A stretch of DNA of 61,427 nucleotides from a virus. Taxonomy: Duplodnaviria; Caudoviricetes. Shown here in pieces: positions 1,264 through 53,634 of the stretch. Location: IMG/VR virus record IMGVR_UViG_3300035670_000214, positions 1 to 61,427 of that record, one strand, 5' to 3'. The translations under genes were made by a program, and so were the position numbers. Under the pieces are notes generated by a model. It searched no databases, was not told the origin of the DNA, and saw only the letters and a list, made by a program, of their open reading frames with translations. Position 1 is the first letter of the stretch. The number at the start of each line of letters is the position of its first letter.

Positions 1264-1439
1264 GTCTTTGGTTAAGCTTAAGCATAATTCTACCTGTACT
1301 AATCACCATGCTTAGCGTACTGGTATACATGCAGTTAAAGTTACGACGTGAACTGAAACTAGCTAAACAGAAGATGCGAGAAGGTACCTTAAAACGTAAT
1401 CATAAGAGACTATACCTTATAGACACGGAGCGTAAATAA
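1248..1439 (+). CDS. Small single-pass membrane protein
   Basis: Hydrophobic N-terminus and basic tail; fills the terL-portal gap and overlaps both genes. Confidence 0.55.
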   Translation: MDNTLSLWLSLSIILPVLITMLSVLVYMQLKLRRELKLAKQKMREGTLKRNHKRLYLIDTERK

Positions 1440-3463
1440 TGGCTAAGATTATGCGATGGACACCTGAGCAGGCTAAGAAGGAACTAGCTAAAAGGCTTAA
1501 GTTCGCCAAAGAGCAGAGGATACGTCTAGAGTCTGAATGGGACAGTAACGAGTCTACCGTCATGAATGCAGCTGGAGAAACGTCCCGCGTAAACATGGGA
1601 GTTGACTGGAATAGCGGCTCCTTGATAGAGGATATCGACCAATCAGATAGCGACATCGGAGTTAACTATGCTTTTAAAAATTTCCGTTTCATCCATAGCC
1701 AACTGTGCGCAAACCCTCCTACTGTTATACCACGTCCAACTAGTAGCGACTTATCAGACCGTAGAAAAGCTGATGCGGCAGATAGGCTAGTCCGCTACGC
1801 CATGCGTACCTATGGCCTTCCTGACGTATTCGCTCAGGCTAGCTACTACGCCTTGGAGTTCGGTACTGGCTTCATTAAGACTACTTGGGATACTGAAGCA
1901 GGTGAACCATTAGACTTCGATGAAGAAACTGGCGAGCTCACAATGGAGGGCGATATCCAGTTTAAATCCCTAAGCCCCCGTAGTGTCTTCCTTGACCCAG
2001 ACGCGACGAGATGGTCAGAAGTTAAATACGTAATCGAACTAATGTATATGCCTTATGAGGAAGCTATCTATCGTTTCCCAGAGAAAGCCGAGGAGCTTAA
2101 AAAGTATAGAAGAGAGCAGGCTGGTTACTCAGCGGAGGCTCCAATCTCCTACGATAGCGCATTTAAAACTAGCCCTTACGACGTGGTCGAGATATACGAA
2201 TACTACGAGAAGGGATTACCATACAACGGTATGATAGGCAGGCACTGCTACTTTCTGGTAGACGGCACTCCATTGACTGACATGGCACCTAACCCTTTCC
2301 GTTTCACTAGCCCTAAAGACAGAGGACTTGGTCTTCCAGAGCAGGCGTTAAATGAGGAAGCCAAGGATTTACCGGCTACTGCCTATCTTCCTTACCACAT
2401 CTTAACTGACATTGATGTAGGTGGTTCTGTCTGGGGTCGTTCGTTTATAGCTTACGAGGCTCCGCTACAATCAACCTATAATAGGGTGCTTAGCTCCTTG
2501 CTTGATTGCGTGCAAGCCCATGGCGTCACCAGGGTATTGCTACCAGAGGGCGCTGAGATTGCTGACAAGTCCATCACCAATAGTCCGTGGGATATAGTTA
2601 GGTTCACTGGAAACCAGGAACCTAAATTCATGGAACCTATGCCATTTCCTCCAGCTGCAGCTGACCTACTCCAACTCGTTAAGCAGGGTGGAGATGATAT
2701 GGCCGCTGTCAACGAGTCAATGTTCGGACAACAATCCAGGGAACAATCTGGCTTTAGCATGCAATACGCTACCAATCAAGGCAACATGATACGCCGCCGA
2801 CTCTTCGATAAGTACGTCACCTTGGTCGAGAACGTTTACAAGGCATACCTTAACCTCGTCAGAAAGCATTGGTCTGAACCTAGAACCATATTAGTATTGG
2901 GTAAAGAGAAGGCTTTTGAATCTATCGACATTCAAGGCGCTGACATTGATGGTGGATTCGACCTGGTTGTGGAATATGGTGCCAGCTTGTCGCTTGACCC
3001 TACTAGCCGTAGGCAGGAATTGCTACAGTTGTTCCCAATTTTCCAACAAGCTGAGACTGACCCAGCTGCTAAGAAGCTCTTGAGTATGCTGAGGCTAAAT
3101 GAGCTAGAAGGTATGTATGACCGTATCCAGCTAGCAGCCGATAGACAGAGGGAGATATTCGAGGAAATGATAGCTACTGACATGTACATAGCTCCAGCTG
3201 AAGCCGAGGACGACGTCAACATGCTAGCTTGGGCATCAGATTACCGCATGAGTGCAGAGTTCAAATACCTTAAGCCTGAACATCAATTGCTTATACTCCG
3301 TCACATTAAGGAAAGAGCTATGAAGGTAGCCCAGACTGCAGGCGGCATGCCGGGTCCTGGGGGCCCAGGTGGAGGCGGAGCAGCAGCAGGTCAATTACCA
3401 GTAGTACCAGGCGGAGCACCTATGGATATCGCGGCAAGTCCCGCAGCAATGCTTCAGAAGTGA
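1439..3463 (+). CDS. Portal protein (P22-like)
   Basis: 674 aa after terL; DRRKADAA, FGTGFIKTTWD and VFLDPDA motifs typical of P22-like portals; Gly/Pro-rich tail. Confidence 0.88.
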   Translation: MAKIMRWTPEQAKKELAKRLKFAKEQRIRLESEWDSNESTVMNAAGETSRVNMGVDWNSGSLIEDIDQSDSDIGVNYAFKNFRFIHSQLCANPPTVIPRPTSSDLSDRRKADAADRLVRYAMRTYGLPDVFAQASYYALEFGTGFIKTTWDTEAGEPLDFDEETGELTMEGDIQFKSLSPRSVFLDPDATRWSEVKYVIELMYMPYEEAIYRFPEKAEELKKYRREQAGYSAEAPISYDSAFKTSPYDVVEIYEYYEKGLPYNGMIGRHCYFLVDGTPLTDMAPNPFRFTSPKDRGLGLPEQALNEEAKDLPATAYLPYHILTDIDVGGSVWGRSFIAYEAPLQSTYNRVLSSLLDCVQAHGVTRVLLPEGAEIADKSITNSPWDIVRFTGNQEPKFMEPMPFPPAAADLLQLVKQGGDDMAAVNESMFGQQSREQSGFSMQYATNQGNMIRRRLFDKYVTLVENVYKAYLNLVRKHWSEPRTILVLGKEKAFESIDIQGADIDGGFDLVVEYGASLSLDPTSRRQELLQLFPIFQQAETDPAAKKLLSMLRLNELEGMYDRIQLAADRQREIFEEMIATDMYIAPAEAEDDVNMLAWASDYRMSAEFKYLKPEHQLLILRHIKERAMKVAQTAGGMPGPGGPGGGGAAAGQLPVVPGGAPMDIAASPAAMLQK

Positions 3464-3995: not shown

Positions 3996-4203
3996 CGACA
4001 AGTCTGAAAAGCCCAACTATAGTTCCGCTATGGAGATGGGCAAAGGTAAATATGGTGTTTACGTCACCTTTACCAAAGAGGAATTGGAGAAGATTCAAGC
4101 TCATTGCAACGGCATGCGGGTCAATCTGTCAAAGTGGATAAGCAACATGGTACGCGATGAGCTAATGTTAACCGACATCATGGATAAATCAAAGGACGTC
4201 TAA
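3982..4203 (+). CDS. Putative ribbon-helix-helix DNA-binding protein
   Basis: Strand GVYVTF followed by two helices (EELEKIQAHC / NLSKWISNMVRDEL). Confidence 0.55.
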   Translation: MANYNDKSEKPNYSSAMEMGKGKYGVYVTFTKEELEKIQAHCNGMRVNLSKWISNMVRDELMLTDIMDKSKDV

Positions 4204-7037
4204 TGAGCTGGCAGAATCCGTCGCAAGAATTCGTTTACCTACGTACCTACGCTAGATACCTTACTGAAGAGCAGAGAAGAGAGACTTGGCCTGAGACCGT
4301 AGACAGAGTAGTCTCCTTCCTTAAATTGCAGAGAGCTAATGTTCCAGCCAAGGTCTGGATTAAACTTACGAAGTATATGTTAAATCTGGACGTACTTCCT
4401 AGCATGCGACTTGTCTGGGCAGCTGGCCCAGCGGCAGCTAGGTGTAACGTACCCATCTACAATTGTTCCTTCGTAGAGATGAAGGACATTCAATCCTTCA
4501 GCGAGATGTTATATGTACTTATGTGCGGCACTGGTGTTGGCTTTAGTGTGCAGGCTTGCCACGTGGAGCAGCTACCGGAAGTTCCTAAATTCCCGCTACA
4601 GCAGGAATATATCGAGCACAAGGTCGAAGACAGTAAAGAAGGATGGGCCGATTCCCTGAAATTACTGTTAGAGCAGTTATTTTTGGGCAAGAGCGTAAAC
4701 TTTGATTATTCCGCTATCCGGCCTAAAGGAGCGCGGCTGGCTACCATGGGCGGTAGAGCCTCTGGCCCAGAGCCACTCGTAGTCTTGCATCAATTCGTGA
4801 AGGATACCCTGCACGCTGCCCAAGGCCGTAAACTTAAGCCTATAGAAGTCCACGACATTTGCAATAAGATAGCCGAGATAGTGGTAGTTGGTGGCGTTAG
4901 GCGTAGCAGTCAAATTAGCCTCTCTGACCTTAATGATGAGGACATGCGCCACGCTAAGGACTGGCCCTGCCCTATCCACAGGTTCATGGCTAATAATAGC
5001 GCAGTATATCTGGAACGTCCAGACGCGGTACAGTTCATGAAGGAGTGGCACGCTCTGGCAGCTTCTGGCTCAGGTGAGCGTGGTATATTTAACTTGGGTT
5101 CCGTCCGAACTAATTCGCCTAAACGTAGAAACAAGGAGCTTATCTCAGGCACTAATCCCTGCGTACCCGGCGATACCGAGATATTGACACGTCAAGGTTA
5201 CCAGCGTATTGACCAATTACTCGGTCAAGAGGTAGAAGTCTGGAACGGTTTTGAATGGTCCAAAGTAGAACCAAAGATTACTGGAGAGAATCAAGCTATA
5301 GTAAAGGTCACCCTATCCAATGGACGCTCTTTACGCTGTACACCCGCACACAAGTGGGTAATAGCTGAAGGATACAACGGTAAAACTAAACGACTTAGAG
5401 CAGATGAATTAGCTGTAGGTATGAAGCTAATAAAGCATGAATATCCTGTTATAAAAGAAGGACGTAGGTTCGAGCAGGCTTATACTCAAGGCTTTATCTC
5501 AGCAGATGGCATGGATGATTACGACTTCTTATACTTGTATGAAACTAAGTTCGTCTGTGAATCTAGATTAGTAGGTCAAGCGGTAGGTAGTGGATACACT
5601 AGCCTTAATGGAACTGAGCGTAAAACTTTTAAGCTTGACTTTCAGCCTATGTCTAAAGACTATGTACCATTCGACTGTGACCTTCAATCTAGGCTAGATT
5701 GGCTAGCAGGGTTATTAGATGGAGATGGTACAGAATTAAAAGAGGGCGGAGTTCAAGTTAGCTCAGTTAATAGGTCATTCCTTCTCGAAGTACAAAAGTT
5801 ACTTACCACCTGTGGCGTAGCATCGAAAGTAACGCTAGGTAATCCAGCTGGGCATCGAATAATGCCAGATGGCAGAGGCGGAGTTAAAGCCTACCTCTGC
5901 CAAGAGGGATATAGATTACTTATAGGCGCAACACAGATGCAAGAGCTAAAAGAACTGGGTCTTAAGTGTGAGCGTTTGAAGCTGGAAGCAAGTCCTAACC
6001 GTGATGCTTCTAGATTTGTAACTATTGCTAGTATTGAAGAGGATGGAGTCGAGGAACTAGTATATTGCTTCACTGAGCCACTCCGCAACCTAGGCTGTTT
6101 CGATGGTATAATAACAGGGCAGTGCGGCGAGATTGCCCTGCGTGACAAGCAGTTCTGTAACCTATCTACTGTCATCGTCAGACCTGAGGACACCCTTACT
6201 AGCCTACTCGATAAGGTAGAGACTGCTGCTTGGATAGGCACAATCCAGGCTTCATTTACCAACTTCCCTTACCTCCGTAAAGAGTGGAGTGAGAACTGTA
6301 AGGAGGAGGCCCTCCTTGGGGTCAGCCTATCGGGCCAGATGGACAATGTTCCCTTGCTCACCAAACAGACCTTAGCTGAGCTGAAACGTAAATGCGTCGA
6401 GGTAAATAAGCACGCGGCTGAGGTATTAGGTATTAAGCAGGCTGCTGCGATAACCTGCGGTAAGCCTGAGGGTACTACTAGCCAACTTACCTTCAGCGGC
6501 TCTGGCTGTCACCCTTGGTACTCAAAATACTTTATCCGTAGGTACCGTATATCTGCTAGCGACCCTCTCTGTCACCTATTAAAGGAGTCTGGTGCTCCCC
6601 TTGTCCCGGAGGTAGGCCAGACCTGGGAGACAGCCAATACCCTTGTGGTAGAGTTTCCGTGCAAGGCCCCCGAAGGGGCCATCTTGCGTGAACAGGTATC
6701 AGCTCTGGACCAGTTAAAGTGGTATAAGCGGGTACAGACCAACTGGTGCGAACATAATCAGTCCATCACCGTCTACGTCAAGCCTGACGAGTGGTTCGAC
6801 GTAGGTAACTGGGTATATAAGAACTGGGACATAGCGTGCGGTCTATCCTTCCTGCCCTACGATGGCGGTAACTACCAGCTAGCTCCCTATGAGGAAATCT
6901 CGCAGGAGGAGTACCAAGACCGGTTAGCCAGGTTCCCGACTATCGACTACTCCCAGTTATGGAAGTACGAGCAGGAAGACCAGACTGAAGGAGCTAAAAC
7001 TTACGCTTGCGTTGGCGATAAGTGTGAGCTAAGCTGA
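4203..7037 (+). CDS. nrdJ: Class II (B12-dependent, monomeric-type) ribonucleotide reductase with an intein
   Basis: PSMR, YNC, GTGVGFS, GGVRRS, TNPC|GEI, FCNL, KPEGT motifs and C-terminal CVGDKC; no small subunit in the genome. Confidence 0.93.
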   Translation: MSWQNPSQEFVYLRTYARYLTEEQRRETWPETVDRVVSFLKLQRANVPAKVWIKLTKYMLNLDVLPSMRLVWAAGPAAARCNVPIYNCSFVEMKDIQSFSEMLYVLMCGTGVGFSVQACHVEQLPEVPKFPLQQEYIEHKVEDSKEGWADSLKLLLEQLFLGKSVNFDYSAIRPKGARLATMGGRASGPEPLVVLHQFVKDTLHAAQGRKLKPIEVHDICNKIAEIVVVGGVRRSSQISLSDLNDEDMRHAKDWPCPIHRFMANNSAVYLERPDAVQFMKEWHALAASGSGERGIFNLGSVRTNSPKRRNKELISGTNPCVPGDTEILTRQGYQRIDQLLGQEVEVWNGFEWSKVEPKITGENQAIVKVTLSNGRSLRCTPAHKWVIAEGYNGKTKRLRADELAVGMKLIKHEYPVIKEGRRFEQAYTQGFISADGMDDYDFLYLYETKFVCESRLVGQAVGSGYTSLNGTERKTFKLDFQPMSKDYVPFDCDLQSRLDWLAGLLDGDGTELKEGGVQVSSVNRSFLLEVQKLLTTCGVASKVTLGNPAGHRIMPDGRGGVKAYLCQEGYRLLIGATQMQELKELGLKCERLKLEASPNRDASRFVTIASIEEDGVEELVYCFTEPLRNLGCFDGIITGQCGEIALRDKQFCNLSTVIVRPEDTLTSLLDKVETAAWIGTIQASFTNFPYLRKEWSENCKEEALLGVSLSGQMDNVPLLTKQTLAELKRKCVEVNKHAAEVLGIKQAAAITCGKPEGTTSQLTFSGSGCHPWYSKYFIRRYRISASDPLCHLLKESGAPLVPEVGQTWETANTLVVEFPCKAPEGAILREQVSALDQLKWYKRVQTNWCEHNQSITVYVKPDEWFDVGNWVYKNWDIACGLSFLPYDGGNYQLAPYEEISQEEYQDRLARFPTIDYSQLWKYEQEDQTEGAKTYACVGDKCELS
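5160..6122 (+). mobile_element. Intein (321 aa) with LAGLIDADG homing endonuclease, at the RNR active-site Cys
   Basis: N-junction TNP|CVPGDTEILT; block B CTPAHKW; QGFISADG and WLAGLLDGDG; C-junction IITGQ|CGEI. Confidence 0.93.
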
Positions 7038-10732: not shown

Positions 10733-11872
10733 ATGGCAACCAGATATACCACCAATCTACGTTTGCGCATTGAGGATAACCTCACCGCAGACGCCATATA
10801 CAACCTTCAACGTATAGACGAACTGGGAGCTGTATTCAAGCTCTCGACCAGTAGCACAGTCGAACTATCCTCAGCTGAAGACGTGCTCATCCAACCAAAT
10901 AATCCAGCAGCAGGTGGCTCGGGCGTAGGCGGACTCGTTCGCGTAGGTTCATCGGGTCAACCAGCCGATGACATTAATCTATTCGCTAGTCGTGTCAACT
11001 TCTCCGCTCAGACTGTAGACTTCGGCAACGCAAATCTATTAGGCAACTTCACTATACCATGGGACAGGATTGACGCTAGCGGTGGCGGAAGTGTAGCTAA
11101 CTTTCCAGACTTTGAATCAGCCGTACTAGCCATACCAGCAGTATCAGCTAATACCTCTCACCCAAGCATTATCGGTAACCCACACCAGACTACCGCAGCT
11201 GACGTCGGAGCTTACAGCACGAGTCAAATTGACGCACTACTTGCAGCCAAAGCTAACCTTAGCCTATTAACGACCCACACTAGCGCAAGTACTGGAGTCC
11301 ACGGTATTACTGGTGCGGTTGTAGGTACAACTGATGCTCAGACTCTTAGCAATAAGTACCTAGACGCTGACAGCAACCAAATAGTCAACCTCAAGAATGC
11401 CAGCATAGCTGAGGGTGCTAACATCCACGGTTCTAAGATTAGACCGCTGTTCGGGAATCAACAGGTCCAGACCTCAGCAGGTCTACGCCTAGATGGCGCA
11501 TCCCAATACGTGGTTCTTCTACCGTCTGCTGCCGTCCAAGCTACACCCCTAAGCTTTCGCCTTCCTAGCTCTTATGGCTCGGCAGGCCAGGTGCTTGCCA
11601 CAGATGGCAACGGCAACCTTAGCTGGCAGAATACCGCCGGAGCTGCCATCAGCGAGGAAGTCTACCTCTGGCTTGATACCGATGGGGTACAGAAGACCGT
11701 CATCCATAACTTTAACAGTCAATCCCTCGACATTACCATTAGAGATACTACTGACAATGAATTAATCTACGTACCAGACATTAATTTCCTTGACAATAGT
11801 ACCCTAGTTCTGATAAGCTCTGAACCACCAAGCAATGCGTGGCAAGTAATAATACAAGGAGTAGCTAAATGA
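10733..11872 (+). CDS. Virion fibre or decoration protein 1
   Basis: VVGTTDAQTLSNK and GQVLATDGNGNLSW fibre motifs; C-terminal HNFN beta-domain. Confidence 0.7.
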   Translation: MATRYTTNLRLRIEDNLTADAIYNLQRIDELGAVFKLSTSSTVELSSAEDVLIQPNNPAAGGSGVGGLVRVGSSGQPADDINLFASRVNFSAQTVDFGNANLLGNFTIPWDRIDASGGGSVANFPDFESAVLAIPAVSANTSHPSIIGNPHQTTAADVGAYSTSQIDALLAAKANLSLLTTHTSASTGVHGITGAVVGTTDAQTLSNKYLDADSNQIVNLKNASIAEGANIHGSKIRPLFGNQQVQTSAGLRLDGASQYVVLLPSAAVQATPLSFRLPSSYGSAGQVLATDGNGNLSWQNTAGAAISEEVYLWLDTDGVQKTVIHNFNSQSLDITIRDTTDNELIYVPDINFLDNSTLVLISSEPPSNAWQVIIQGVAK

Positions 11873-13659
11873 AAATTTTCGGTAGTATCAGTAGGTTGGT
11901 GAGTATCATCTTCCGCAAAGACGGTCAAGATGTTACTTTCCGCCCAAATCAGTCAACCACTTACACAGCAGCCCGTGACATCCAGTTGCCAGTTGGCGAC
12001 GCTGACCATGAATTGGTTGGCAAGGCCGCTAGTCAGACGCTCACTAACAAGTCAATGTCTGGCGATGACAACACATTCTCAAACATTGGGATTAGCTCCC
12101 TTAAGACTGCTCTGTCTGACGCAGACAAGTTGCTACTTCGTGACGTATCCGGCGCAGTAGTATCTGCTAAGTTGGAAGACAAGCACGTTGCCGCTGGTGC
12201 AGCCATTGCCCTCAGCAAATTGGCAGCCCTCACAGCTAGCAAGGTACTTGTATCTGATGGCTCAGGCGTCATCAGCGCATCTAGCGTAACTAGCACTGAA
12301 CTCGGCTACCTCTCTGGTGTAACCTCTGGTATCCAAAGCCAATTGGACGCACTCTCTGCTTCTAGCTCTGGCGCTCTTTCAGACGCTATCGACGACATCC
12401 AAGCTGATATTGCGGCCCTCACCACTGACGACATCGAAGAGGGTTCTTCAAACCTGTACTTCACCGACGCTCGCGCTCAGGCAGCAGCTGTCGTTGACAC
12501 TGGCTACGCTGGAACCGAAACTAACAAGGCTCCTTCTGTCCGTGCAGTTGTTGCAGCTATCCAAGACGTAACTGACGCTATCGACAGCCTCCAATCTAGC
12601 CTGGAAGCTGCTGACGACGCTTTGGCCGCTGACATTGCTTCTGAGGCTTCTGCTCGTGCAGCTGCCGACAGTTCGCTTCAGACTGCCATCGACAATGAAG
12701 TGTCTGCTCGCCAATCTGCAGTTTCCAGCGAAGCTAGCACACGAGCCGCCGCTGACCTTTCTCTCCAAGCTGAAATTGACGCTGAAGAGATTGCACGTGC
12801 TGCAGCCGATGACGCTCTCGACGCTCGTTTGGACGTATTGGAAGGCGCAGACACAGTAGCTGGTTCAGTAGCCAAAGCGCTCAAAGATGCTAATGCTTAT
12901 ACTGATACTGAAATCTCTGCTCTTGAATCCTCAGTCAATAGTTCAGTTTCTGCCCTTGAATCTGCAGACGATGCAATTGAAGCTCGCCTCGACATCCTCG
13001 AAGGTTCAGCTGCAACTGTTGGTAGTGTTGCTAAAGCCGAAGCTGACGCTAAAGCTTACGCTGACCAAAAGATTGCTGACCTTATCGACGGCGCTCCTGC
13101 CCTCCTCGATACACTTAATGAATTGGCTGCTGCTATTGGCGACGACGAGAACTTCGTCACCACTATCACTACCAGCATCAGCAATGAAGCCTCGGCTAGA
13201 GCTAGTGCGGATACCACGCTCCAGAACAACATCAACGCCCTCGAGACTGCTCTCGAAGCCGCTGACTCTGACCTCCAGGACGCTATCGACGCTGAACAAG
13301 CTCGTGCCGAAGCTGCCGAAGCTACTCTCCAGTCGAACATCGACCTCAAGCTAAATAAGCCTAGCTCAGGTGACGCAGCGGATAAATACCTCCGTAGCAA
13401 TGGCGACGGTAGCACCTACTGGGACGTAGGCTACATTCTTCCAGTCTACAAAACTAACTGGGTTGCAGCCGCTGGTACAAGCAAGACTGTCTCCCACAAC
13501 CTCGGTTCAACGGACGTGGTCGTCAGTCTGGTGGACCTGAGCGATAACCAGGTTATCGGCGTAGATAGCATCGTCGTAACGGACAGCAACACAGTAACAC
13601 TCTCCTCCTCGGAGGCTCCTTCGGCTTCCGGCTGGAGAGTTATCGTTCAGAAAATCTAA
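11869..13659 (+). CDS. Coiled-coil fibre protein 2
   Basis: ExxARxxAD repeats; TTDDIEEGSSNLYFT; APALLDTLNELAAAIGDDENF; C-terminal HNLG domain. Confidence 0.8.
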   Translation: MKIFGSISRLVSIIFRKDGQDVTFRPNQSTTYTAARDIQLPVGDADHELVGKAASQTLTNKSMSGDDNTFSNIGISSLKTALSDADKLLLRDVSGAVVSAKLEDKHVAAGAAIALSKLAALTASKVLVSDGSGVISASSVTSTELGYLSGVTSGIQSQLDALSASSSGALSDAIDDIQADIAALTTDDIEEGSSNLYFTDARAQAAAVVDTGYAGTETNKAPSVRAVVAAIQDVTDAIDSLQSSLEAADDALAADIASEASARAAADSSLQTAIDNEVSARQSAVSSEASTRAAADLSLQAEIDAEEIARAAADDALDARLDVLEGADTVAGSVAKALKDANAYTDTEISALESSVNSSVSALESADDAIEARLDILEGSAATVGSVAKAEADAKAYADQKIADLIDGAPALLDTLNELAAAIGDDENFVTTITTSISNEASARASADTTLQNNINALETALEAADSDLQDAIDAEQARAEAAEATLQSNIDLKLNKPSSGDAADKYLRSNGDGSTYWDVGYILPVYKTNWVAAAGTSKTVSHNLGSTDVVVSLVDLSDNQVIGVDSIVVTDSNTVTLSSSEAPSASGWRVIVQKI

Positions 13660-14002
13660 CTTTGGCTAATAGGAGCTGGACGTTAGATTAAGTTACCTTC
13701 GGTAACCAATCTAATGTCGGCCCCTTCGCCTTATAACGAGGGCCAGGGTTGGCCCCCGCTTCCCAAGTATAGGATGTACTTGGCTGACGACATTTAGACG
13801 GGTCAGATGATATTAAAAAAATATCGTGGTGACACTTTAGATGTCAACTTGTAACTTTACTTTTCAGGTAGGAAGAGCTAAAGTTATTCACGCATCCTAC
13901 CGAAGAGTCCTTCAGACTCTAAGTTACGTGATGGGTATCACTTAACCGGTCGGATGAGCATAACATCGGGGCGACACCCCGCCAATAAGGAGAAGCTAAA
14001 GT
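13660..14002 (+). ncRNA. Large structured RNA or cis-regulatory leader B (family not recognised)
   Basis: 343 nt without an ORF, almost tiled by 10 or more hairpins, with alternative anti-RBS pairing. Confidence 0.65.
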
Positions 14003-17000
14003 ATGAAGATTTTTGGTAGTATCAGTGAATTGGTTGACTTAGCCTTTAGACTCGCTGGCGGGAAGCAAGTGAAGCTTCGCTCCGCTACCCAGACCACCGC
14101 AGGTAGCACAGTAACAGTAAACGTCCCGGACGTAGCAGCTACCGGTGACACGCAGAACATGATATTGACGAATGCTACTCAGACCTTAACTAATAAGACG
14201 CTGACTAGCCCAGTAGTTAGCGGTGGTACCATCAACAACTCCATCATCGGCGGGTCTACCCCAGCAGCTGGTACCTTCACTGACATCGTAGGTTCTACGC
14301 TCGATATCAATACTTCCGCCGAGTTACAGACACTTACTATTCCTAGCTTATCAACAGCTGGTGTATTGCACAATAACTCCTCAGGCGCAGTAAGTTCTTC
14401 CCTTGTCGTTAACGCCGACGTAGATGCTGCAGCAGCTATCGCATTTAGCAAATTGGCTACCCTCGCTTCCGGAAATATCCTCGTAGGCTCTAATACAGGC
14501 GTAGCTACCTCTCGTGCAGTCACTGGTGATGTAACCATCAGCGACCTTGGTGTTACCGCCATTGGCGCTAGCAAGGTCACCGATAGCATGCTAGCTGGTA
14601 ACATAGCTAGAACTAAGCTGGCTACTGGTAACAACTACCGCATACTTGCTAACGATTCCTCAGGTGCAGTGTCTGAGAACGCTGCTTTGACAGCTAACGA
14701 AGCAGTAGCTACCGATGCAAATGGCCAACTGGTATCAGTAACCGGCGTATCCGCTACTGAACTGGGTTACTTATCTGGCGTAACATCCGACGTCCAAACA
14801 CAAATAGATAGTAAGCAAGCAGCTGATGCTACCCTTACTGCTATTGCTGGTGTAACCACTGCCGCCGATAAGTATATCTACTTCGATGGTGTAGATAGCG
14901 CACAAGCAGCTACTATCACCTCATTTGCTCGCGGCCTTTTGGACGATACTAGTGCTACTATAGCCCAGAATACCCTGGGTTTGGGCTCTATGTCCACCCA
15001 GGCTGCCACCAGTGTTAATATTACCGGCGGCACCATACAGACAACTAACCTTCAGAATAACACCCTGAACGGCCATAAACTCGGTTCTGGTTCTGCAAGC
15101 ATTGCTAGCTCTACTCTAACTCCAGCATCTAATAAGTCACTTCAACTTATCGCTTCAGCAGCCAACTTCGGCATGATAGCCAGTCCAAGTGACGGACAGG
15201 AATATGTCCTCGTCAATGAATCTGCATCTGACATTACTATACAGAATCTTACAGGCGCTACTGCAGCTAACCAAATTTATACTGGTACTGGAGCAGATTT
15301 TACCTTTAAGGCTAAATCAGCCGTATCAGTAGTCTACGACGGTACACTTAGCAAGTGGATGTTGACTGGCGGCGGCGGTGGAGCTGGTGGACTTGCTACC
15401 ACCTACGTTACAGCTGGCGGCATCACTGCAGTCAAGAATACTCACTACCTTACGAATCTGGCTGCATCGGGCCAGACCATTACTCTCCCAGCTGGTGTTG
15501 ATGGCGACGTCATCCGCTTCTCTGACGCAGGTGAAGTCTGGGATGTATACCCACTTACCATCGCCCCAGCAAGTGGCGAGAAGATTGATAAGCTTGCGAT
15601 AGATGAGACGCTCGTATGTGACGTCAAGCGCGGCTGGGTTGAGCTCTCCTACAACAGCACCTTCGGCGGCTGGGCTTTCATGTCTCTGGCTTCCAGCTCT
15701 GGCAGTGCCTCTGGCTCTGGCGAGATTAATGCTGTGCTTAACGCCTCGGCAGCAGCTGACACTACTGGCTGGACGAATGCTACACGCGTAAGCTCTGGCT
15801 CACCTTTGGACCCAGTTGTCACTACAGCCCTCAGCATTTCAAATGTGGCAGCTTCCGAAGGCCCTACCTCAGGTGGCTACTACTCTATCGCAACAATGCC
15901 AGCTTCATTACGAAGCAGAAAACTTAAACTAGAATTCTACTATTCCACACCGGCTACAGATGTGTACAAGGTGTCGGTTTATGCCGGTTCAACCAGACTG
16001 TCCCTCAGCAGTGACAACTCAGGAGCTACAAGCCTACCAGCCAACGTAACAGGAGGCTTCTTCAGCGCATCCTTCGACGCTACTACAGCTTCGGCTTACA
16101 CACTGAACATCACCCGTACCTCCGGTACTACTGGCGCAATCACGGTTACGAATGTTGTCGTAGGCCCAGGCATCGTAGCTCAGGGTGCAGCTATTAGTGA
16201 GTGGCAGAGTTATACGCCTGCAAGTACGCAAGGTTTTGGTAATCCCACTGCTACGGTTTATAGATATAAACGTTCAGGTAGCTCAATAATTGTCTCCGTG
16301 AAATTTACCGCTGGCACGGTTACAACTGACGAAGCACGTATATCCCTCCCGTCCGGGCTCACGAGCGCAACCACAAATGCATTGACTATGGTGGGAGCGT
16401 ATGCAAGGGGTACAGGTACTACAGCATCGGCAAATCAAGTATATATTGAAAACGGTGCGGCTTACTTAACTTTTGGACGGGCAGATGGAACCTTAGCTGG
16501 ATATGCTAAGCGGCAAGGTAGTCAGCTTGTTTCCGCTGGTGAGGATTTTGGTTTTACTACTGCAGAAATCCCCATCGCTGAGTGGGCCGGAAATGGCACA
16601 GTCAATTTGGGACAAGGTGCTAACCTCGAATATGCCTTTAATAGCTCGGCTACCACCACGACGGACACGACGAGTTTTGGCTATGGTCCGACCGGCGCTG
16701 CTTTTGCTGCGTTTGCTCCAGGTGGAACAGCAAGTGTAGATAAACGAGTCAGGTTTCAGTATCCAATACAACAAGATGATGAATTGGTTGTCGAAGTGCA
16801 AGAAGCTGGTACTGGAACTTGGGTGCCCTTAATTTCCCGTTTAGGGGCTTTTTACAGCAACGCTGCAGGTACTACCTACTACGGGACTCAATTGATACGT
16901 GTATCTGGTAGCTCGACTGATGTTGATGTTGCATTCTACGCCGCAGCTCCATCTCAAGGAGCCTGGTCTTCATTAAGTACCTGGAAATGGCGAGTACGCA

Positions 17001-17494
17001 AAGCCAAGGCCAGCGCCCCTGTTGGTTTCGGTCTAGCTACAGCTGACCAAGCTGGTCTGTTACGTGGCTACAGCAACATGTCCAAGATTCGCCTGAATAC
17101 TGGTAATGGCTACGGGTCTACTAACACAGCTATCCGACGGTTCACTAACACAGTAGTTAATACCGGAACAGGTATTACCTACGCTGATAGTGCAACGCTT
17201 GGAGCTACGTTTACTGTCAATGAAGCTGGTATTTATGCAATATCGTATAGTGACGGATTTAATGCTGCAGCTGCTTTTGGGATTAGTTTAAACTCAACTC
17301 AATTAACAACAGCTATCGCAACTATTACAGCAGCAGACCGTTTGTGTATGTCAGTAACATCGGCAGCTGATTACCATTCCAGCGTCAGCGTAACTTTAGC
17401 CCTTTCTGTAGGTGATGTTATTCGCGCACATGCAGGAACTGCGGACAGTACAGCTCCTGTAAGAACGCAATTTACTATCCAACGTATCGGTTAA
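14003..17494 (+). CDS. Long tail fibre / receptor-binding protein 3
   Basis: 1163 aa, Ala/Thr/Ser/Gly-rich; QTLTNKTLTSP, TELGYLSGVTS and DATLTAIAG fibre motifs; C-terminal beta domains. Confidence 0.85.
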   Translation: MKIFGSISELVDLAFRLAGGKQVKLRSATQTTAGSTVTVNVPDVAATGDTQNMILTNATQTLTNKTLTSPVVSGGTINNSIIGGSTPAAGTFTDIVGSTLDINTSAELQTLTIPSLSTAGVLHNNSSGAVSSSLVVNADVDAAAAIAFSKLATLASGNILVGSNTGVATSRAVTGDVTISDLGVTAIGASKVTDSMLAGNIARTKLATGNNYRILANDSSGAVSENAALTANEAVATDANGQLVSVTGVSATELGYLSGVTSDVQTQIDSKQAADATLTAIAGVTTAADKYIYFDGVDSAQAATITSFARGLLDDTSATIAQNTLGLGSMSTQAATSVNITGGTIQTTNLQNNTLNGHKLGSGSASIASSTLTPASNKSLQLIASAANFGMIASPSDGQEYVLVNESASDITIQNLTGATAANQIYTGTGADFTFKAKSAVSVVYDGTLSKWMLTGGGGGAGGLATTYVTAGGITAVKNTHYLTNLAASGQTITLPAGVDGDVIRFSDAGEVWDVYPLTIAPASGEKIDKLAIDETLVCDVKRGWVELSYNSTFGGWAFMSLASSSGSASGSGEINAVLNASAAADTTGWTNATRVSSGSPLDPVVTTALSISNVAASEGPTSGGYYSIATMPASLRSRKLKLEFYYSTPATDVYKVSVYAGSTRLSLSSDNSGATSLPANVTGGFFSASFDATTASAYTLNITRTSGTTGAITVTNVVVGPGIVAQGAAISEWQSYTPASTQGFGNPTATVYRYKRSGSSIIVSVKFTAGTVTTDEARISLPSGLTSATTNALTMVGAYARGTGTTASANQVYIENGAAYLTFGRADGTLAGYAKRQGSQLVSAGEDFGFTTAEIPIAEWAGNGTVNLGQGANLEYAFNSSATTTTDTTSFGYGPTGAAFAAFAPGGTASVDKRVRFQYPIQQDDELVVEVQEAGTGTWVPLISRLGAFYSNAAGTTYYGTQLIRVSGSSTDVDVAFYAAAPSQGAWSSLSTWKWRVRKAKASAPVGFGLATADQAGLLRGYSNMSKIRLNTGNGYGSTNTAIRRFTNTVVNTGTGITYADSATLGATFTVNEAGIYAISYSDGFNAAAAFGISLNSTQLTTAIATITAADRLCMSVTSAADYHSSVSVTLALSVGDVIRAHAGTADSTAPVRTQFTIQRIG

Positions 17495-17665
17495 TCCGGT
17501 CCCGAAGGGGACCATCCCGTTACTTCTAGCGAAGTAACTTCTGACTTGACCTGGCACCTCAGCAGGTTTACAATCTGAGGTGTATTCTTTCTGTTTTAAC
17601 CACTTATGGCTAACCCGTTCCCGACAGGGAACCTGGTGGCCATACAACGAATAAGGAATAAACGC
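17495..17665 (+). promoter_or_regulatory. Structured leader C
   Basis: Hairpins GGTCCC/GGGACC, GTTACTTC/GAAGTAAC, CACCTCAG/CTGAGGTG, GTTCCC/GGGAAC; TATTCTTT can pair with the SD region AAGGAATA. Confidence 0.6.
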
Positions 17666-18544
17666 ATGGCCAACTTGTCTAGTAAAACAGGCACCATTAC
17701 CACGCCTGTCCAGACCCAGATATCACTATCCAACAATGCCACCACGTCAGTTCAAGACATGTCTGCTTACGATTCCCAGGAAGTAACTGGCTTCGTATAC
17801 GTGGATGCAACCAACGACCTCCGCTGCAGCTTTAGCGTAACCGTCGTCAAGAACGGCGCAGGCACTTACGAAGTTGCAGCAGTAGACCAATCTGGTGATA
17901 ACTATTCCTCAGCCCCGCTTCTCACGTTTAGCATGAGTAGCAGCACCCTCCGCGTAACTCTACCGAACGTAACAGGCTTCGCATCCGCCTACATGCGCTA
18001 CCAACTCTCGGCCCCTTACCTCGGGGGTAACTACCCACTGAGTGTATCGGCTAGTCAGGTTTTAGGAAATGCTGCAGGTACAGCACCAACTGCTGGCTAC
18101 ATTGGGGAAATTAAGAAAAGCACAGTGACAACGGCAACAAATATACCGGGTGCAACAGGTACTTTTGCTGACGCAGCAAATATATCTATTACGGCAGGTA
18201 TTTGGTTGGTATATGGAGCAGTCAGTATTGCGAGAAACTCGGCAACATTTAGTTCTACAGACATTGCATGTGGATTTAACACGACATCAGGAAACTCAGC
18301 AGCAGGTCTGAAGGAAGGTATAAATTATATAAACCCAGCAGCTTTAATAACCACAACGTTCACGAGGGTTGATTTGGTTTTGCCTCCAACACTTGTCAGG
18401 TGCGATGGAACCACTATTACTCGTGAAGAAGATAGTGTAGCGTTTGCTTCCGGAACCACTTTGTACCTCAAGCTTTATGTAGCAGCATTTAGTGCGGCAA
18501 CGCCACAATATACTGGAAAATTTGTAGCTATTCGCATAGCTTAA
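17666..18544 (+). CDS. Two-domain fibre or receptor-binding protein 4
   Basis: AAGGA RBS favours ATG 17666 over 17606; GTAPTAGYIGE junction motif, then a beta-rich C-domain ending AIRIA. Confidence 0.75.
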   Translation: MANLSSKTGTITTPVQTQISLSNNATTSVQDMSAYDSQEVTGFVYVDATNDLRCSFSVTVVKNGAGTYEVAAVDQSGDNYSSAPLLTFSMSSSTLRVTLPNVTGFASAYMRYQLSAPYLGGNYPLSVSASQVLGNAAGTAPTAGYIGEIKKSTVTTATNIPGATGTFADAANISITAGIWLVYGAVSIARNSATFSSTDIACGFNTTSGNSAAGLKEGINYINPAALITTTFTRVDLVLPPTLVRCDGTTITREEDSVAFASGTTLYLKLYVAAFSAATPQYTGKFVAIRIA

Positions 18545-18847
18545 CAAGTTGGACTCTATCGAGTCCACCAGGCTGACCGAAAGGTCAGCTGTCTCCCTCA
18601 AAAATGAATTGAACGATAAGGAAATGGGGGGGTTGCTAACAGCAACTGGACGTTTCCAACCAACAACAGATAAACAATCCACTCTGGCGGGTGTCCTTAA
18701 AAAGATGTGACTGTTGCCAATCCCACTAACGTGGTCCTGCAACTTCGCATTTACCCCCGCCAGAATCCGCCCTAACGGGCGTCCTATCAACAGATTCAAC
18801 AACCTTCATTAGAAAGGGTAAATGCGTGGCTACTAGATACATAAGGC
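18545..18847 (+). ncRNA. Pseudoknotted structured RNA D (family not recognised)
   Basis: Crossing helices 18683-90/18757-64 and 18746-56/18816-26; GAAA and UAAC-loop hairpins; long closing helix. Confidence 0.65.
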
Positions 18848-19267
18848 GTGAATAAGGTACAGAGCTCAAATGACGGGATAGCACCACCAGATGGATACAT
18901 TGGAGAAATAAAATCAGTATCTACAGCAACGGCTATTACTACTTCTAATTCAAATCTTGCAACCCTAACATTAACTCCTGGTACCTGGATTGTGACTGGC
19001 GGATATCGCTTCGGCGGAGATGCTGTAGCAAGATACTTGATAATCAGCCTTTCTACTACATCTGCGACAGCGGACACAGAGGCAGGAAGAACTGTAGTAG
19101 CGGATTATAATACAGTGGGTGGTGTTGTAGGAGCAACTACATTCTCTCGTACTTTTAGAGTCACCTCGGTAGCTTCTACCCAAACTATATATCTTGTCGG
19201 CCTTACTTCCAGTGTATCCGGAGCAGCATCATTTTATGGTTATATTGAAGCAGTTCGTATAGCTTAA
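18848..19267 (+). CDS. Orphan paralog of the C-terminal domain of fibre 4 (possibly a silent cassette)
   Basis: GIAPPDGYIGEIK ... TPGTWIV ... AVRIA mirrors 18050-18544; GTG start without a well-spaced RBS. Confidence 0.7.
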   Translation: MNKVQSSNDGIAPPDGYIGEIKSVSTATAITTSNSNLATLTLTPGTWIVTGGYRFGGDAVARYLIISLSTTSATADTEAGRTVVADYNTVGGVVGATTFSRTFRVTSVASTQTIYLVGLTSSVSGAASFYGYIEAVRIA

Positions 19268-19330
19268 CAATCCGGCAATCCTACCCCTTACGGGGTAGTC
19301 CGGGCCATCGACTTGCCAGGGAGGCTAATT

Positions 19331-19636
19331 GTGAACCAAGAGCATGACGAGCAGACTAGGTGGCTTGTTTCTTATCTCGAAACTAGGTTCGGTCGGTTAG
19401 AGGATAGAATATCCTCCGTGGCCGAAGGACTTGAAGATAGGTTAGACCAGGCCATTATGGCGCAGTCGGTCAAGATTGATACTCTAGAGGAAAAGGTCAA
19501 CCAATTGGAGAATGACCACCTCAAGTTGTCGAACCAGGCTGGTCTGGTGCGGAATTTGCTTGCATTCATTGGCACAGGTATGCTATCCTTACTTGGTTGG
19601 GCGATTACTTACTTTTGGCCTACTGGCGGTAAGTAG
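19331..19636 (+). CDS. Coiled-coil protein with a C-terminal TM helix (holin or XhlA-like)
   Basis: GGAGG RBS before GTG 19331; heptads followed by LLAFIGTGMLSLLGWAITYFW. Confidence 0.55.
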   Translation: MNQEHDEQTRWLVSYLETRFGRLEDRISSVAEGLEDRLDQAIMAQSVKIDTLEEKVNQLENDHLKLSNQAGLVRNLLAFIGTGMLSLLGWAITYFWPTGGK

Positions 19637-19696
19637 TCCCTCGACCCCCCCCCCTCATACATCCTTGACCTAACTACTAATATAAGGAATAGACAG

Positions 19697-19966
19697 ATGA
19701 AAAAAGAACTACTCAAGAAGATGAAGTACGACATGCCTAAGGGCCCGAAGGGTGAAGCCCCTGAGGGAACTGAGATTGAGATTAGTCTTGGTGAGGAATC
19801 TGAGGAACTTGGCGGACCTAAAATGCCAGGCGAGTCCGAGGACGAGATGATGGCCGAAGAAGAGATGGACATGGAAGAGCCCGAAGCTCTCGACCTATCC
19901 CTCGCATCTGACGAGGAATTGATGGCTGAACTCAAAAAGCGCAAAGCTAAGCCAGCGATGGCCTAG
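19697..19966 (+). CDS. Small acidic disordered virion-associated protein
   Basis: AAGGA RBS; Glu/Met-rich; C-terminal SDEELMAELKKR helix. Confidence 0.6.
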   Translation: MKKELLKKMKYDMPKGPKGEAPEGTEIEISLGEESEELGGPKMPGESEDEMMAEEEMDMEEPEALDLSLASDEELMAELKKRKAKPAMA

Positions 19967-19992
19967 TCCTTTTAGACTAGGAGACCCTGATT

Positions 19993-20991
19993 ATGGCTAG
20001 GTCACTTACTACCCGCCAGTTGATTGCTGCCGTCCGCTCTCTCATTGACGAGCAGAACGAAGCAGAGATTAACGATACTATTGACATACTACCATCCCTT
20101 AACCGGGGATTCGATGACGCCATCGACATTCTAGCACGGCGCTACCCTGATGCCCTTATAACCAACCGCACTGTCTCCTTAAGCGAGGGCGATGAGGGTC
20201 TATTCCCCATCCCGGAAGATGCCTTTCAAGAGCGCTTAGAGAAGGTAGAAGCTAGCATCAATGGCTACTACACCGAGATTCAAAGGATAGACTACCGGGA
20301 CATTACCTACTACGATGTACCCCAGAACTCGGGTTCACCCTTCTACTACGCAGTCATAGGTTCAGATTATAAATTGGTCCCTCCGCCTTCAGGTATTGAT
20401 GGCCTTCGCATCTGGTATATACCAGAAGTAGGGCCACTCGTCGAGGAGTACGGGCGCATAACTGTGATAGGTACCGACAATTCGCTACCTACGGCAAGGT
20501 CGTACGTCAGATTGACCGACGTAACTGACCCTGACCAAGTTAGTCAAGATATAAGCTCCTTGTCTAGCTTCGTTAACCTCATCGACCACAGAACTGGTCG
20601 GATAAAGGCTACCCTCCAGATTGCTAGTATCTCAGGACCTAAGGTAATATTCAGTGCTAGTCCTAATAGGGCAGTTGTTCAGGGCCGCACTGTCAGTACT
20701 TCGCTTCCAGCAGGTACTGAGCTGGATGACTACCTCTGTCCGGTTGACGGTACTTGCATACCTCCTATGCGCTCTCCTTTGACCAACTTCCTCATTACCT
20801 ATAGTTCAGCCGAACTGAAAGCACTGAAGCTGGACGGCGACCCTAACGTGGTACTAGCTCAGCTTAAAAAATTCGAGGAGCGAATAGAGAAGACCTGGGT
20901 AAGAAGAGAGCAGTCTCAGCGAGTTTACCGAGCATCCAAGAACTGGGGTCCACGTACCAATAACCTCTGGGTGCGTACTCCGCGAACATAA
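19993..20991 (+). CDS. Head-tail adaptor (tail tubular protein A-like)
   Basis: LIAAVRSLIDE...LNRG...FPIPED...GSPFYYAV...LVPPP...IWY pattern; lies upstream of the nozzle gene. Confidence 0.7.
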   Translation: MARSLTTRQLIAAVRSLIDEQNEAEINDTIDILPSLNRGFDDAIDILARRYPDALITNRTVSLSEGDEGLFPIPEDAFQERLEKVEASINGYYTEIQRIDYRDITYYDVPQNSGSPFYYAVIGSDYKLVPPPSGIDGLRIWYIPEVGPLVEEYGRITVIGTDNSLPTARSYVRLTDVTDPDQVSQDISSLSSFVNLIDHRTGRIKATLQIASISGPKVIFSASPNRAVVQGRTVSTSLPAGTELDDYLCPVDGTCIPPMRSPLTNFLITYSSAELKALKLDGDPNVVLAQLKKFEERIEKTWVRREQSQRVYRASKNWGPRTNNLWVRTPRT

Positions 20992-52702: not shown

Positions 52703-53107
52703 CTACTCATTACCCTCATTACCATTACCTACCCCTACCGTAGGTATATCTGCAAGAACTGTACCAGTCGTACCTTGGATGTTGCAAACATCCTTGTCTT
52801 GCCTATCCCAGAACGCATGTATTATACTGTCTACTAGTAGCTGTAGCTCTGGCTCCAGGTCCTCGGTAACTATTGCCTTTATAATAGGCTCATTCTGTTT
52901 AATGTGTCTAGTGTAAGCATCGTATATCTCTGCTTCATCCATATCCAGGTAGTGGTCTACCAGTCCATTCCACATGAAGAGTTTATGCTCATCGCATAAC
53001 TCTAGGCCATAATGACTTGGTGACTCCCGTACTATCACCTCGTCTGGTAACTCACGTAGATGTTTATCTGCCAACTGATAGGCTATGCGTCTGAATTTAC
53101 TTTCCAT
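52703..53107 (-). CDS. Hypothetical protein
   Basis: AAGGAG RBS; coupled to the HTH gene. Confidence 0.55.
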   Translation of the reverse strand: MESKFRRIAYQLADKHLRELPDEVIVRESPSHYGLELCDEHKLFMWNGLVDHYLDMDEAEIYDAYTRHIKQNEPIIKAIVTEDLEPELQLLVDSIIHAFWDRQDKDVCNIQGTTGTVLADIPTVGVGNGNEGNE

Positions 53108-53634
53108 TACTTGGCTCCTTTGAACTGGGAGATAGCTTCTTCGGCCATCATTACTGTATCCGGTTGTATGTCTGCTAAGGAGACTCTAGCGTTAAGTGAA
53201 TGCTTCACGCCATAAGCATTCAGCTTACGCTGGAGGGTGCGAAGACCTATACCCAGACTCTGTGCCGTCTTAGTCTTGTTGCCCTTCATGTGGATAAGGC
53301 GGGTCAGAATCAGATACTTCTCCATGTCCCTAATACTAGTAGTGTCGCCTGGTAAGTAGTTCACGTGTGCTCCTCTGTTGTTGTTCATGGTACCTCCTAT
53401 GTCATTTCGTCGTAGTTGTTTACGCACCGTGTTGATGTGCATATTAAGTGTATCGGCAACTGCTTCCAAATTCTTTAGCCTTCTGAAACGAATAATTATG
53501 CAATGGGTTCTAAACTCCTGAATAGTCTGGTAATTCCGTAACCTAGGTAGCTTACTATGCCGCCAGATATTCCGTATCTCTCCATCTATCCACAGTTGTT
53601 TAGGCTTAGTCATAGCTACTCCAGAACTCCTCAC
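53107..53634 (-). CDS. Tandem Fis-family (HTH_8) DNA-binding protein
   Basis: NLEAVADTLNMHINTVRKQL and GNKTKTAQSLGIGLRTLQRKL; internal GGAGG-ATG at 53388. Confidence 0.8.
   Translation of the reverse strand: MRSSGVAMTKPKQLWIDGEIRNIWRHSKLPRLRNYQTIQEFRTHCIIIRFRRLKNLEAVADTLNMHINTVRKQLRRNDIGGTMNNNRGAHVNYLPGDTTSIRDMEKYLILTRLIHMKGNKTKTAQSLGIGLRTLQRKLNAYGVKHSLNARVSLADIQPDTVMMAEEAISQFKGAK

Follow-up and report, generated by a model that had tools for sequence, protein, structure and literature searches.

A free tip-domain gene behind fibre 4 of an uncultured podovirus-like phage: probably an accessory gene that is gained and lost rather than a switching device

Introduction

Accessory receptor-binding genes and the modular exchange of fibre tips are already well known. 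In phages Mu and P1 alternative C-terminal parts of a fibre lie side by side in invertible segments, which need an invertase of the Gin/Cin type together with inverted repeats, and in the silent-cassette gene conversion of pilE/pilS a 5'-truncated partial copy with shared conserved borders is located behind the expressed gene. Here we analyse the IMG/VR virus record IMGVR_UViG_3300035670_000214, a complete record of 61,427 bp with direct terminal repeats (the whole of which is called the window below), in which an open reading frame (ORF) at 18848-19267 follows the gene of a fibre-like protein, fibre 4. A first-pass annotation, made from the letters alone, had described this ORF as a silent alternative tip of fibre 4, bounded by near-identical DNA and serving host-range switching by recombination or by an event at the RNA level. 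Our results suggest that the element is probably an ordinary accessory gene that is gained and lost, not a switching device, and that the flagged repeats are structural motifs of the protein.

The gp38 adhesins of T2/T6-type phages are small separate host-recognition proteins encoded beside the fibre gene, with a conserved N-terminal part, a hypervariable specificity part and short core motifs that ease the interchange of segments (PMC3157838). The window ORF is similar to gp38 in being a separate gene by a fibre gene, in its conserved N-terminal and variable specificity parts and in its interchange-permitting motifs, and differs in being paralogous to the tip that is fused to the fibre itself, with a predicted TNF-like jelly-roll fold. 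With respect to the gp38 family, the ORF product had no Pfam match at E ≤ 0.01 and gave unrelated, sub-threshold matches at E ≤ 1. T2/T6 gp38 is the closest working analogue of the window ORF, without family membership. A further point of comparison is gp47 of the Pectobacterium podovirus PhiM1 (PDB 8VBX), for which PMC11440229 describes six trimeric fibres. The profile of the ORF's family matched residues 406-533 of 8vbx_R, the C-terminus of this tail fibre, including the G-x-V-G-E start and the R-R-V end of the domain (E = 1.2e-13 with the family profile as query). In gp47, by contrast, the domain belongs to one protein with a long helical fibre.

Results

A tip domain shared by fibre 4 and the stand-alone ORF

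In the AlphaFold2 model of fibre 4 (pLDDT 82.9) an N-terminal beta-sandwich at residues ~17-115 is connected by a low-confidence linker (120-137) to a C-terminal tip domain (149-290), and the hidden Markov model (HMM) of the tip family matched residues 158-312 of a longer form of the fibre 4 ORF (E = 1.4e-13). When the stand-alone ORF was compared with this C-domain, BLASTP found 22/47 identities, around the 5' motif discussed below only, and a global alignment gave 46 identical residues among 133 aligned. On this evidence the ORF is a paralogous member of the fibre-4 tip-domain family and not a copy of fibre 4's own C-domain. The first-pass statement that the ORF is only the C-domain of fibre 4 holds in that it is a complete domain of that type, with the qualification that it is a paralogue.

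A phmmer search with the ORF product among 1.84 billion representatives gave 147 matches at E ≤ 0.001. In the longer of the matched proteins the domain was always placed at the extreme C-terminus, on many scaffolds, the best fused matches being P0062 (909 aa, 58% identity) and P0063 (452 aa, 55%), and the other matches were proteins of ~132-157 aa made of the domain alone. A profile search limited to proteins of 72-275 aa returned 305 clusters at E ≤ 1e-5, the named sources of which say hypothetical protein with the exception of one raw record label. Among 120 listed clusters, 89 combined a length of 130-170 aa with an M-x-x-K...DG-x-A leader and an R-I/V-x tail. The leader of the stand-alone members, about 23 residues long (M-T-Q-K-A-L-L-Q-S-A-G-D-G-T-A-V-P-A-G-Y-V-G-E), is almost invariant and their bodies are less than 40% identical. 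No Pfam or PHROG family was found for fibre 4 or for the ORF product, and in a literature search on the motif strings and on the exchange of fibre C-domains the tip family was not described among the matches listed.

Residues 4-139 of the window ORF aligned with the stand-alone proteins P0065 (E = 3.3e-10) and P0066 (E = 1.2e-9) from residue 7 of these to the end, its GTG stands at the place of the family methionine and its K3 aligns with the family K4. The ORF has the length of the family (~130-170 aa) and its A-V/I-R-I-A-stop end, and its 139 codons are unbroken with all family-invariant residues kept. The profile of the stand-alone family (A2) includes the window ORF, so that the HMM score of the ORF is not independent.

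Recurrent order of fused and free tips

The stand-alone profile detected 10 viral loci. In eight of these (L008-L015) a longer fibre with the same C-terminal domain, recognised by HMM, lay just upstream at gaps of 10-824 nucleotides (nt); a ninth (L007) had the same fused-then-free layout by alignment (48/128 identical), and in the last (L006) the free copy had no fused copy within 4 kb upstream. Fused and free tips within one locus were 33-41% identical in 9/9 pairs. All eight stand-alone genes read in other loci begin with ATG, and a well-spaced, AAGGAG-like ribosome-binding site (RBS) was present in all six for which upstream DNA was read. At leader residues that are identical between loci the same codon was used in just 6-17 of 16-21 positions, so that roughly half of the synonymous codons differ; such differing codons under a conserved leader indicate selection on the translated peptide. 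A free tip after a fibre with the same domain thus appears to be a recurrent gene order and, elsewhere, an ordinary translated gene. Given a large stand-alone family with such starts, such RBS spacing and a leader conserved as protein, the earlier label of the ORF as silent was not upheld.

In 7/8 loci examined among L006-L015 the free tip was followed by a conserved gene of ~279-307 codons, the product of which has a lipoprotein-signal-like N-terminus in L008, L010, L011 and L015 and ends in ...HDGVD(F/Y)L...AGQ(I/L) in five loci. The loci examined from the fibre-4 family search (L003, L004, L016-L019) had no free copy of the domain after fibre 4, and the context of P0062 (L029) was a different kind of phage with no free tip. 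In one syntenic relative (L020), whose downstream gene is 86% identical to that of the window, the slot after fibre 4 (2131-3189) holds a different free, tip-like ORF of 352 aa with an RBS and an ATG, and P0032 carries the domain of this ORF as a fusion with the N-domain of fibre 4 (E = 2e-21, aligned from P0032 residue 135).

Predicted fold and trimer

The AlphaFold2 model of the stand-alone ORF (pLDDT 81.1) has eight strands. Foldseek matched it to lectins of the TNF-like or jelly-roll type and to fibre tips of phages, namely the Bc2L-C N-domain 2wq4 (TMq 0.57), the Pgp3 C-domain, the short-fibre CBD of cyanophage A-1(L) (8ke9) and cyanophage A4 (9k09). Against TNF-like lectins TMq was 0.5-0.57. 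The predicted fold resembles that of 2wq4 and 8ke9 (TMq 0.53-0.57) at a sequence identity of 11-14%, and a trimer is predicted. The whole model of fibre 4 gave generic double-beta-sandwich matches only, at TM 0.28 or less. The ORF has the same predicted fold as the tip of fibre 4, which agrees with its description as an alternative tip, and the domain is most naturally taken as a putative tip for binding receptors or glycans.

Prediction with three copies of the ORF product gave a homotrimer score of 0.85 as compared to 0.00 for the best of 3 controls. The score mark of the trimer was reached by 20/30 proteins solved as one-chain pairs and by 1/23 solved as single chains, the trimer run using, unlike this calibration, its own alignment and three copies. 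Contact agreement between the trimer runs was at least 89% and partner pLDDT at least 81, and given that solved TNF-like trimers exist, the score may reflect likeness to these. The confident contacts include residues 16-21, 43-48 and 134-139, which correspond to the conserved motifs, and both motifs are accordingly predicted to lie on the three-fold axis of a TNF-like trimer. Motifs that pack on such an axis would be conserved as protein and not as DNA, and the simplest account of the 'conserved flanks' is a structural one.

Since many fibre chaperone genes sit directly after the fibre gene, and the place of the free tip directly after a fibre with the same domain is conserved in 8-9/10 loci, we also considered that the free paralogue is an assembly helper, which templates or caps the folding of the neighbouring fused tip and binds no host. 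We regard this as very unlikely. Fibre chaperones are not known to be paralogous to the tips that they fold; for the free copy, a closed homotrimer of its own that uses the same axis residues is predicted; the stand-alone gene of L006 has no fused copy within 4 kb upstream; and a relative described below keeps an identical fibre-4 tip without the ORF.

Flanking motifs as DNA and as protein

The near-identical DNA reported at the borders of both domains was confirmed. The 5' pair matches at 13/14 positions (E = 0.32 versus random sequence) and the 3' pair, which runs 3 nt past both TAA stops, at 16/17 (E = 0.005 versus random sequence). At residues identical in fibre 4 and the ORF the same codon was used in 3/6 cases in the 5' motif (2.6 expected from window codon usage), in 3/5 in the 3' motif (1.8 expected) and in 19/46 over the whole domain (16.8 expected). 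Codon identity at expectation gives no indication that the copies were converted or that their DNA as such is under selection, and the 14-mer and 17-mer matches, at homologous positions of homologous domains, are explained by conserved residues.

Both motifs bound the variable C-terminal part in the fibre-4 family as well as in the wider tip family, a G-Y-I-G-E-type motif being present in 36/58 fibre-4 relatives, most of these ending R-I-A, and other genomes write both motifs with different codons. Structure prediction of both domains, proposed earlier as a check, placed the 5' motif directly ahead of the first tip strand (residues 149-159 in fibre 4 and 21-30 in the ORF), with the last strand reaching the C-terminus in both models. 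In locus L009 the 5' motif regions of the fused (4001-4032) and free (5326-5357) tips share 30/32 nt (E = 3e-9), far above the window and the other loci, and this sharing may be due to local gene conversion.

Table 1. Positions of features in and around fibre 4 and the stand-alone ORF.
Feature	Position	Strand	Description
Sigma-70-like promoter match (TTGACC, 17 nt, TACAAT)	17546-17574	+	10/12 matches, ahead of fibre 4
Fibre 4	17666-18544	+	292 aa, ATG with AGG 9 nt upstream
5' motif, copy 1, fibre 4	18098-18111	+	codons of Y-I-G-E-I(-K)
3' motif, copy 1, fibre 4	18531-18547	+	R-I-A, stop, 3 nt beyond; last base before the junction in the X5 relative
Spacer, hairpin-rich	18545-18847	+	303 nt
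Accessory module (spacer and stand-alone ORF)	18548-19276	+	missing in the X5 relative
Stand-alone tip-domain ORF	18848-19267	+	139 aa, GTG start, ends AVRIA
RBS-like ATAAGG (18852-18857) and out-of-frame ATG (18870)	18852-18881	+	12 nt apart; 3-codon ORF ending TAG
5' motif, copy 2, stand-alone ORF	18896-18909	+	codons of Y-I-G-E-I(-K)
3' motif, copy 2, stand-alone ORF	19254-19270	+	R-I-A, stop, 3 nt beyond
Hairpin-forming stretch	19277-19306	+	directly follows fibre 4 in the X5 relative

Spacer and sequencing runs

The ORF is located 303 nt after fibre 4, and the spacer between them is strongly structured (minimum free energy -102.3 kcal/mol, z = -4.5, none of 100 shuffles as good). In 17400-19700 no Rfam family was found at threshold, with one sub-threshold match to a miRNA family (E = 0.98). 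Tblastn of P0062, P0063, P0064, P0073, P0001, P0003 and P0014 on 18400-19300 gave no significant coding remnant in the spacer. An alignment of P0063 extending ~20 codons upstream across the TAA had few identities and a gap and was taken as extension noise. The spacer also contains a run of seven G at 18626-18632. The promoter match ahead of fibre 4 is the single promoter-like site in 17400-19750, and given that shuffled sequences had 3.3 such sites on average, it was considered as a consensus match only. One terminator-like site was found, inside fibre 4, which is also fewer than in shuffles.

Run evidence consisted of Logan contigs from four runs, and such contigs drop rare variants; no RNA run was among those listed. 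X3 covered the locus only from 19258 onward, and X4 and X5 had uncovered bins, gaps that do not count as evidence. The probable source run (X2) contained, at a depth of 74, one contig of 61,331 nt identical to the window and free of variant joints, and contigs of X4, from the same study as X2, were identical to the window over parts of the spacer and the ORF. The X2 contig has one extra C after 19644, within a C run at 19644-19653 that lies 3' of the gene ending at 19636, which indicates that the length of this tract varies or that the tract is hard to assemble. No joint between the two 5' (GYIGE) motif copies was seen in the contigs of the four runs, from which rare variants would escape.

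These data bear on the suggestion of a programmed host-range switch, in which the fibre-4 tip would regularly be swapped for a silent cassette, either through site-directed recombination or at the level of RNA (splicing, bypassing or frameshifting). The direct repeats at homologous domain borders, the structured spacer (z = -4.5) and the out-of-frame ATG with a well-spaced RBS within the 5' end of the ORF are compatible with such a switch, but recombination between direct repeats deletes and cannot toggle, and an RNA event is not needed, because each of the two, fibre 4 and the ORF, is a complete domain ending at a stop of its own. Moreover, in line with the first-pass annotation, no invertase or reverse transcriptase was found (Pfam scan of 52 window proteins, which also found no resolvase or integrase; cut-offs of E ≤ 0.01 for 12 proteins and E ≤ 0.001 for 40), synonymous sites are not homogenised, the contig of the probable source run has no variant joint, no Rfam intron or other RNA family was detected at threshold, and hundreds of unrelated genomes have these motifs at the protein level, written with varying codons. 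A programmed switch is therefore extremely unlikely: neither an excess of DNA identity between the copies nor, in the four runs, a contig joining the two GYIGE copies was found in favour of switching, and the RNA-level event found no counterpart in Rfam. A -1 slip on the G-GGA just ahead of the TAG of the 3-codon ORF would lead into the frame of the tip ORF.

The described systems differ accordingly. Unlike the inversion systems of Mu and P1, the window has direct repeats, and no invertase was found among the 52 proteins scanned. Unlike pilE/pilS, its borders are 14 + 17 nt long and match only as the protein requires, the ORF has its own start at the family position, and no converted variants were seen in 58 relatives or in the contigs of the four runs (rare variants escape contigs). 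Unlike in a diversity-generating retroelement, no reverse transcriptase was found among the same 52 proteins, and the two domains share 46/133 residues and form no near-identical repeat pair.

A relative without the module and mosaic boundaries

Run X5, from another study, contained a relative with ~8% differences around 17690-18086 and 19436-20435. In a contig of 403 nt (depth 6.27), position 18547 is followed by 10 other letters, then by 30 letters from 19277 onward and then by 226 letters unlike the window. The relative therefore retains the fibre-4 tip but has neither spacer nor ORF, and its junction falls where the 3' motif ends. Among the differences listed, none lies in the X5 contigs over 18115-18400 and 18411-18547, and the identical segment seems to begin between 18086 and 18115, where the 5' motif lies, in one contig of 216 nt (depth 2.9). 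An identical segment between both motifs suggests a recent transfer of the fibre-4 tip, tentatively, given the one low-depth contig.

Among 58 relatives of fibre 4, similarity to it breaks down abruptly at residues 147-153, directly after GYIGE, in 10 and at residues 134-141 in 17, and none had a tip close to the window ORF (best 37% identical). P0021 (175 aa) carries a fibre-4-type tip (95/144 identical) without the N-domain. Both P0021 and P0054 (177 aa) are short proteins with a fibre-4-type tip and non-canonical leaders, and the start of P0054 resembles the fibres of L010-L015. With regard to the check proposed earlier, a look in relatives for deletion or swap junctions at the GYIGE motif, mosaic breaks past GYIGE were seen and, at the 3' motif, the X5 joint (18547-19277), but no chimera of fibre 4 and the ORF in the contigs.

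Start signals and the possibility of a passive donor

Several observations count against the ORF being an ordinary translated gene in the window phage. As the first-pass annotation had noted, its GTG lies one codon past an in-frame TAA (the frame reads ...LLDT*GVNKV) and lacks a well-spaced RBS, the sole upstream AGG ending 1 nt before the GTG, whereas 14/17 other long genes on the + strand have an AGG 7-12 nt ahead of an ATG. The initiation signals of the ORF are the worst in the module. Its leader (VNKVQSSNDGIAPPD) is 3 residues shorter than the near-invariant leader of the family and departs from it in many places, retaining K, Q, D-G, A, P and G-Y-I-G-E. The body of the ORF is nearest to fused tips (55-58% identity, versus 41% or less for stand-alone members), and for its first residues an alignment with the internal linkers of two fused proteins, P0063 and P0064, is just as good, so that the ORF could be the 3' remainder of a gene that was once fused. 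Finally, a close relative, that of X5, does without the stand-alone ORF.

The same observations are the basis of an alternative that we consider somewhat unlikely, namely that the ORF is an unexpressed or barely translated leftover, recently acquired or orphaned, which acts as a passive donor for rare, motif-mediated replacement of the fibre-4 tip, as an evolutionary and not a programmed process. The weak start signals and divergent leader, the fused tips as closest relatives, the dispensable module in X5 with its junction at the 3' motif and the break in identity just past GYIGE in 10/58 relatives are all consistent with this, as is the X5 pattern, which suggests that a tip was recently transferred with these two motifs as its limits. 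The short protein P0021 with its fibre-4-type tip also indicates that tips move between fused and free states. On the other hand, the ORF is intact over 139 codons, with the family-invariant residues kept and a confident fold, and its position and start match those of a family that is clearly translated elsewhere. Furthermore, 0/58 fibre-4 relatives have a tip close to the ORF (best 37%), the four runs contained no chimeric contig, and the microhomologies amount to just 13/14 and 16/17 nt.

Gene context and search scope

The window proteins include a portal of the P22/SU10 type (1439-3463) and an adaptor of the SU10 type (19993-20991), on the basis of which the window phage is considered podovirus-like. 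Fibre-like genes lie in series at 10733-18544, of which fibres 2 (11869-13659) and 3 (14003-17494) have the N-terminal peptide MKIFGSIS in common. The scaffold of fibre 3 (15722-17089) is 48% identical to P0062, the protein whose tip is 58% identical to the free ORF. Between the portal and the structural genes, 4203-7037 encodes a class II-type ribonucleotide reductase (phrog_367) split by an intein with a LAGLIDADG domain, and a 175-aa protein with a Fis-type HTH_8 domain and no recombinase domain is encoded at 53107-53634 on the - strand.

In the GenBank phage collection, blastn with 17000-20000 and tblastn with P0014 and with P0090 gave no match, the portal protein had a single distant match (22.5% identity), and no cultured relative of the window phage was found. 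Scans of viral contigs with the single proteins P0001 and P0002 gave no relatives, whereas alignment queries did find loci.

Discussion

With moderate confidence we regard ORF 18848-19267 as a separately encoded, accessory second tip that is likely translated weakly. Its product would be an accessory copy of a trimeric, TNF-like jelly-roll tip domain with a receptor-binding role, the same domain family forming the C-terminal half of fibre 4. The flanks are the codons of two structural motifs that hardly vary in the family: AGYIGE, just ahead of strand one, and AVRIA-stop, in the final strand. Since these short motifs are common to all members, they probably also mark the points at which tips are exchanged, gained and lost in the course of evolution, and the spacer together with the ORF would be one such module. 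The ORF would most likely be co-transcribed with fibre 4 and weakly translated from the GTG into a small protein, the trimer of which may be a second unit for binding sugars or receptors, as is presumably the case for its relatives with ATG starts, and which may in some way join the virion.

A more far-reaching and rather improbable possibility is that the free and fused tips (33-41% identical) of a broad group of uncultured podoviruses, with the motifs acting as microhomology joints, make up an enzyme-free cassette system for the turnover of host range across the whole family, in which the GTG-started copy of the window has been caught between states.

What stands out is a free paralogue of the fibre's own tip, repeatedly present behind fibre genes across many genomes of uncultured phages, in a family with a near-invariant leader of 23 residues for which neither Pfam nor PHROGs has a name. 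Should the free tip act as a second unit of receptor binding, it would represent a minimal natural module (~140 aa) with defined swap points, which would help to infer host range from phage genomes in metagenomes.

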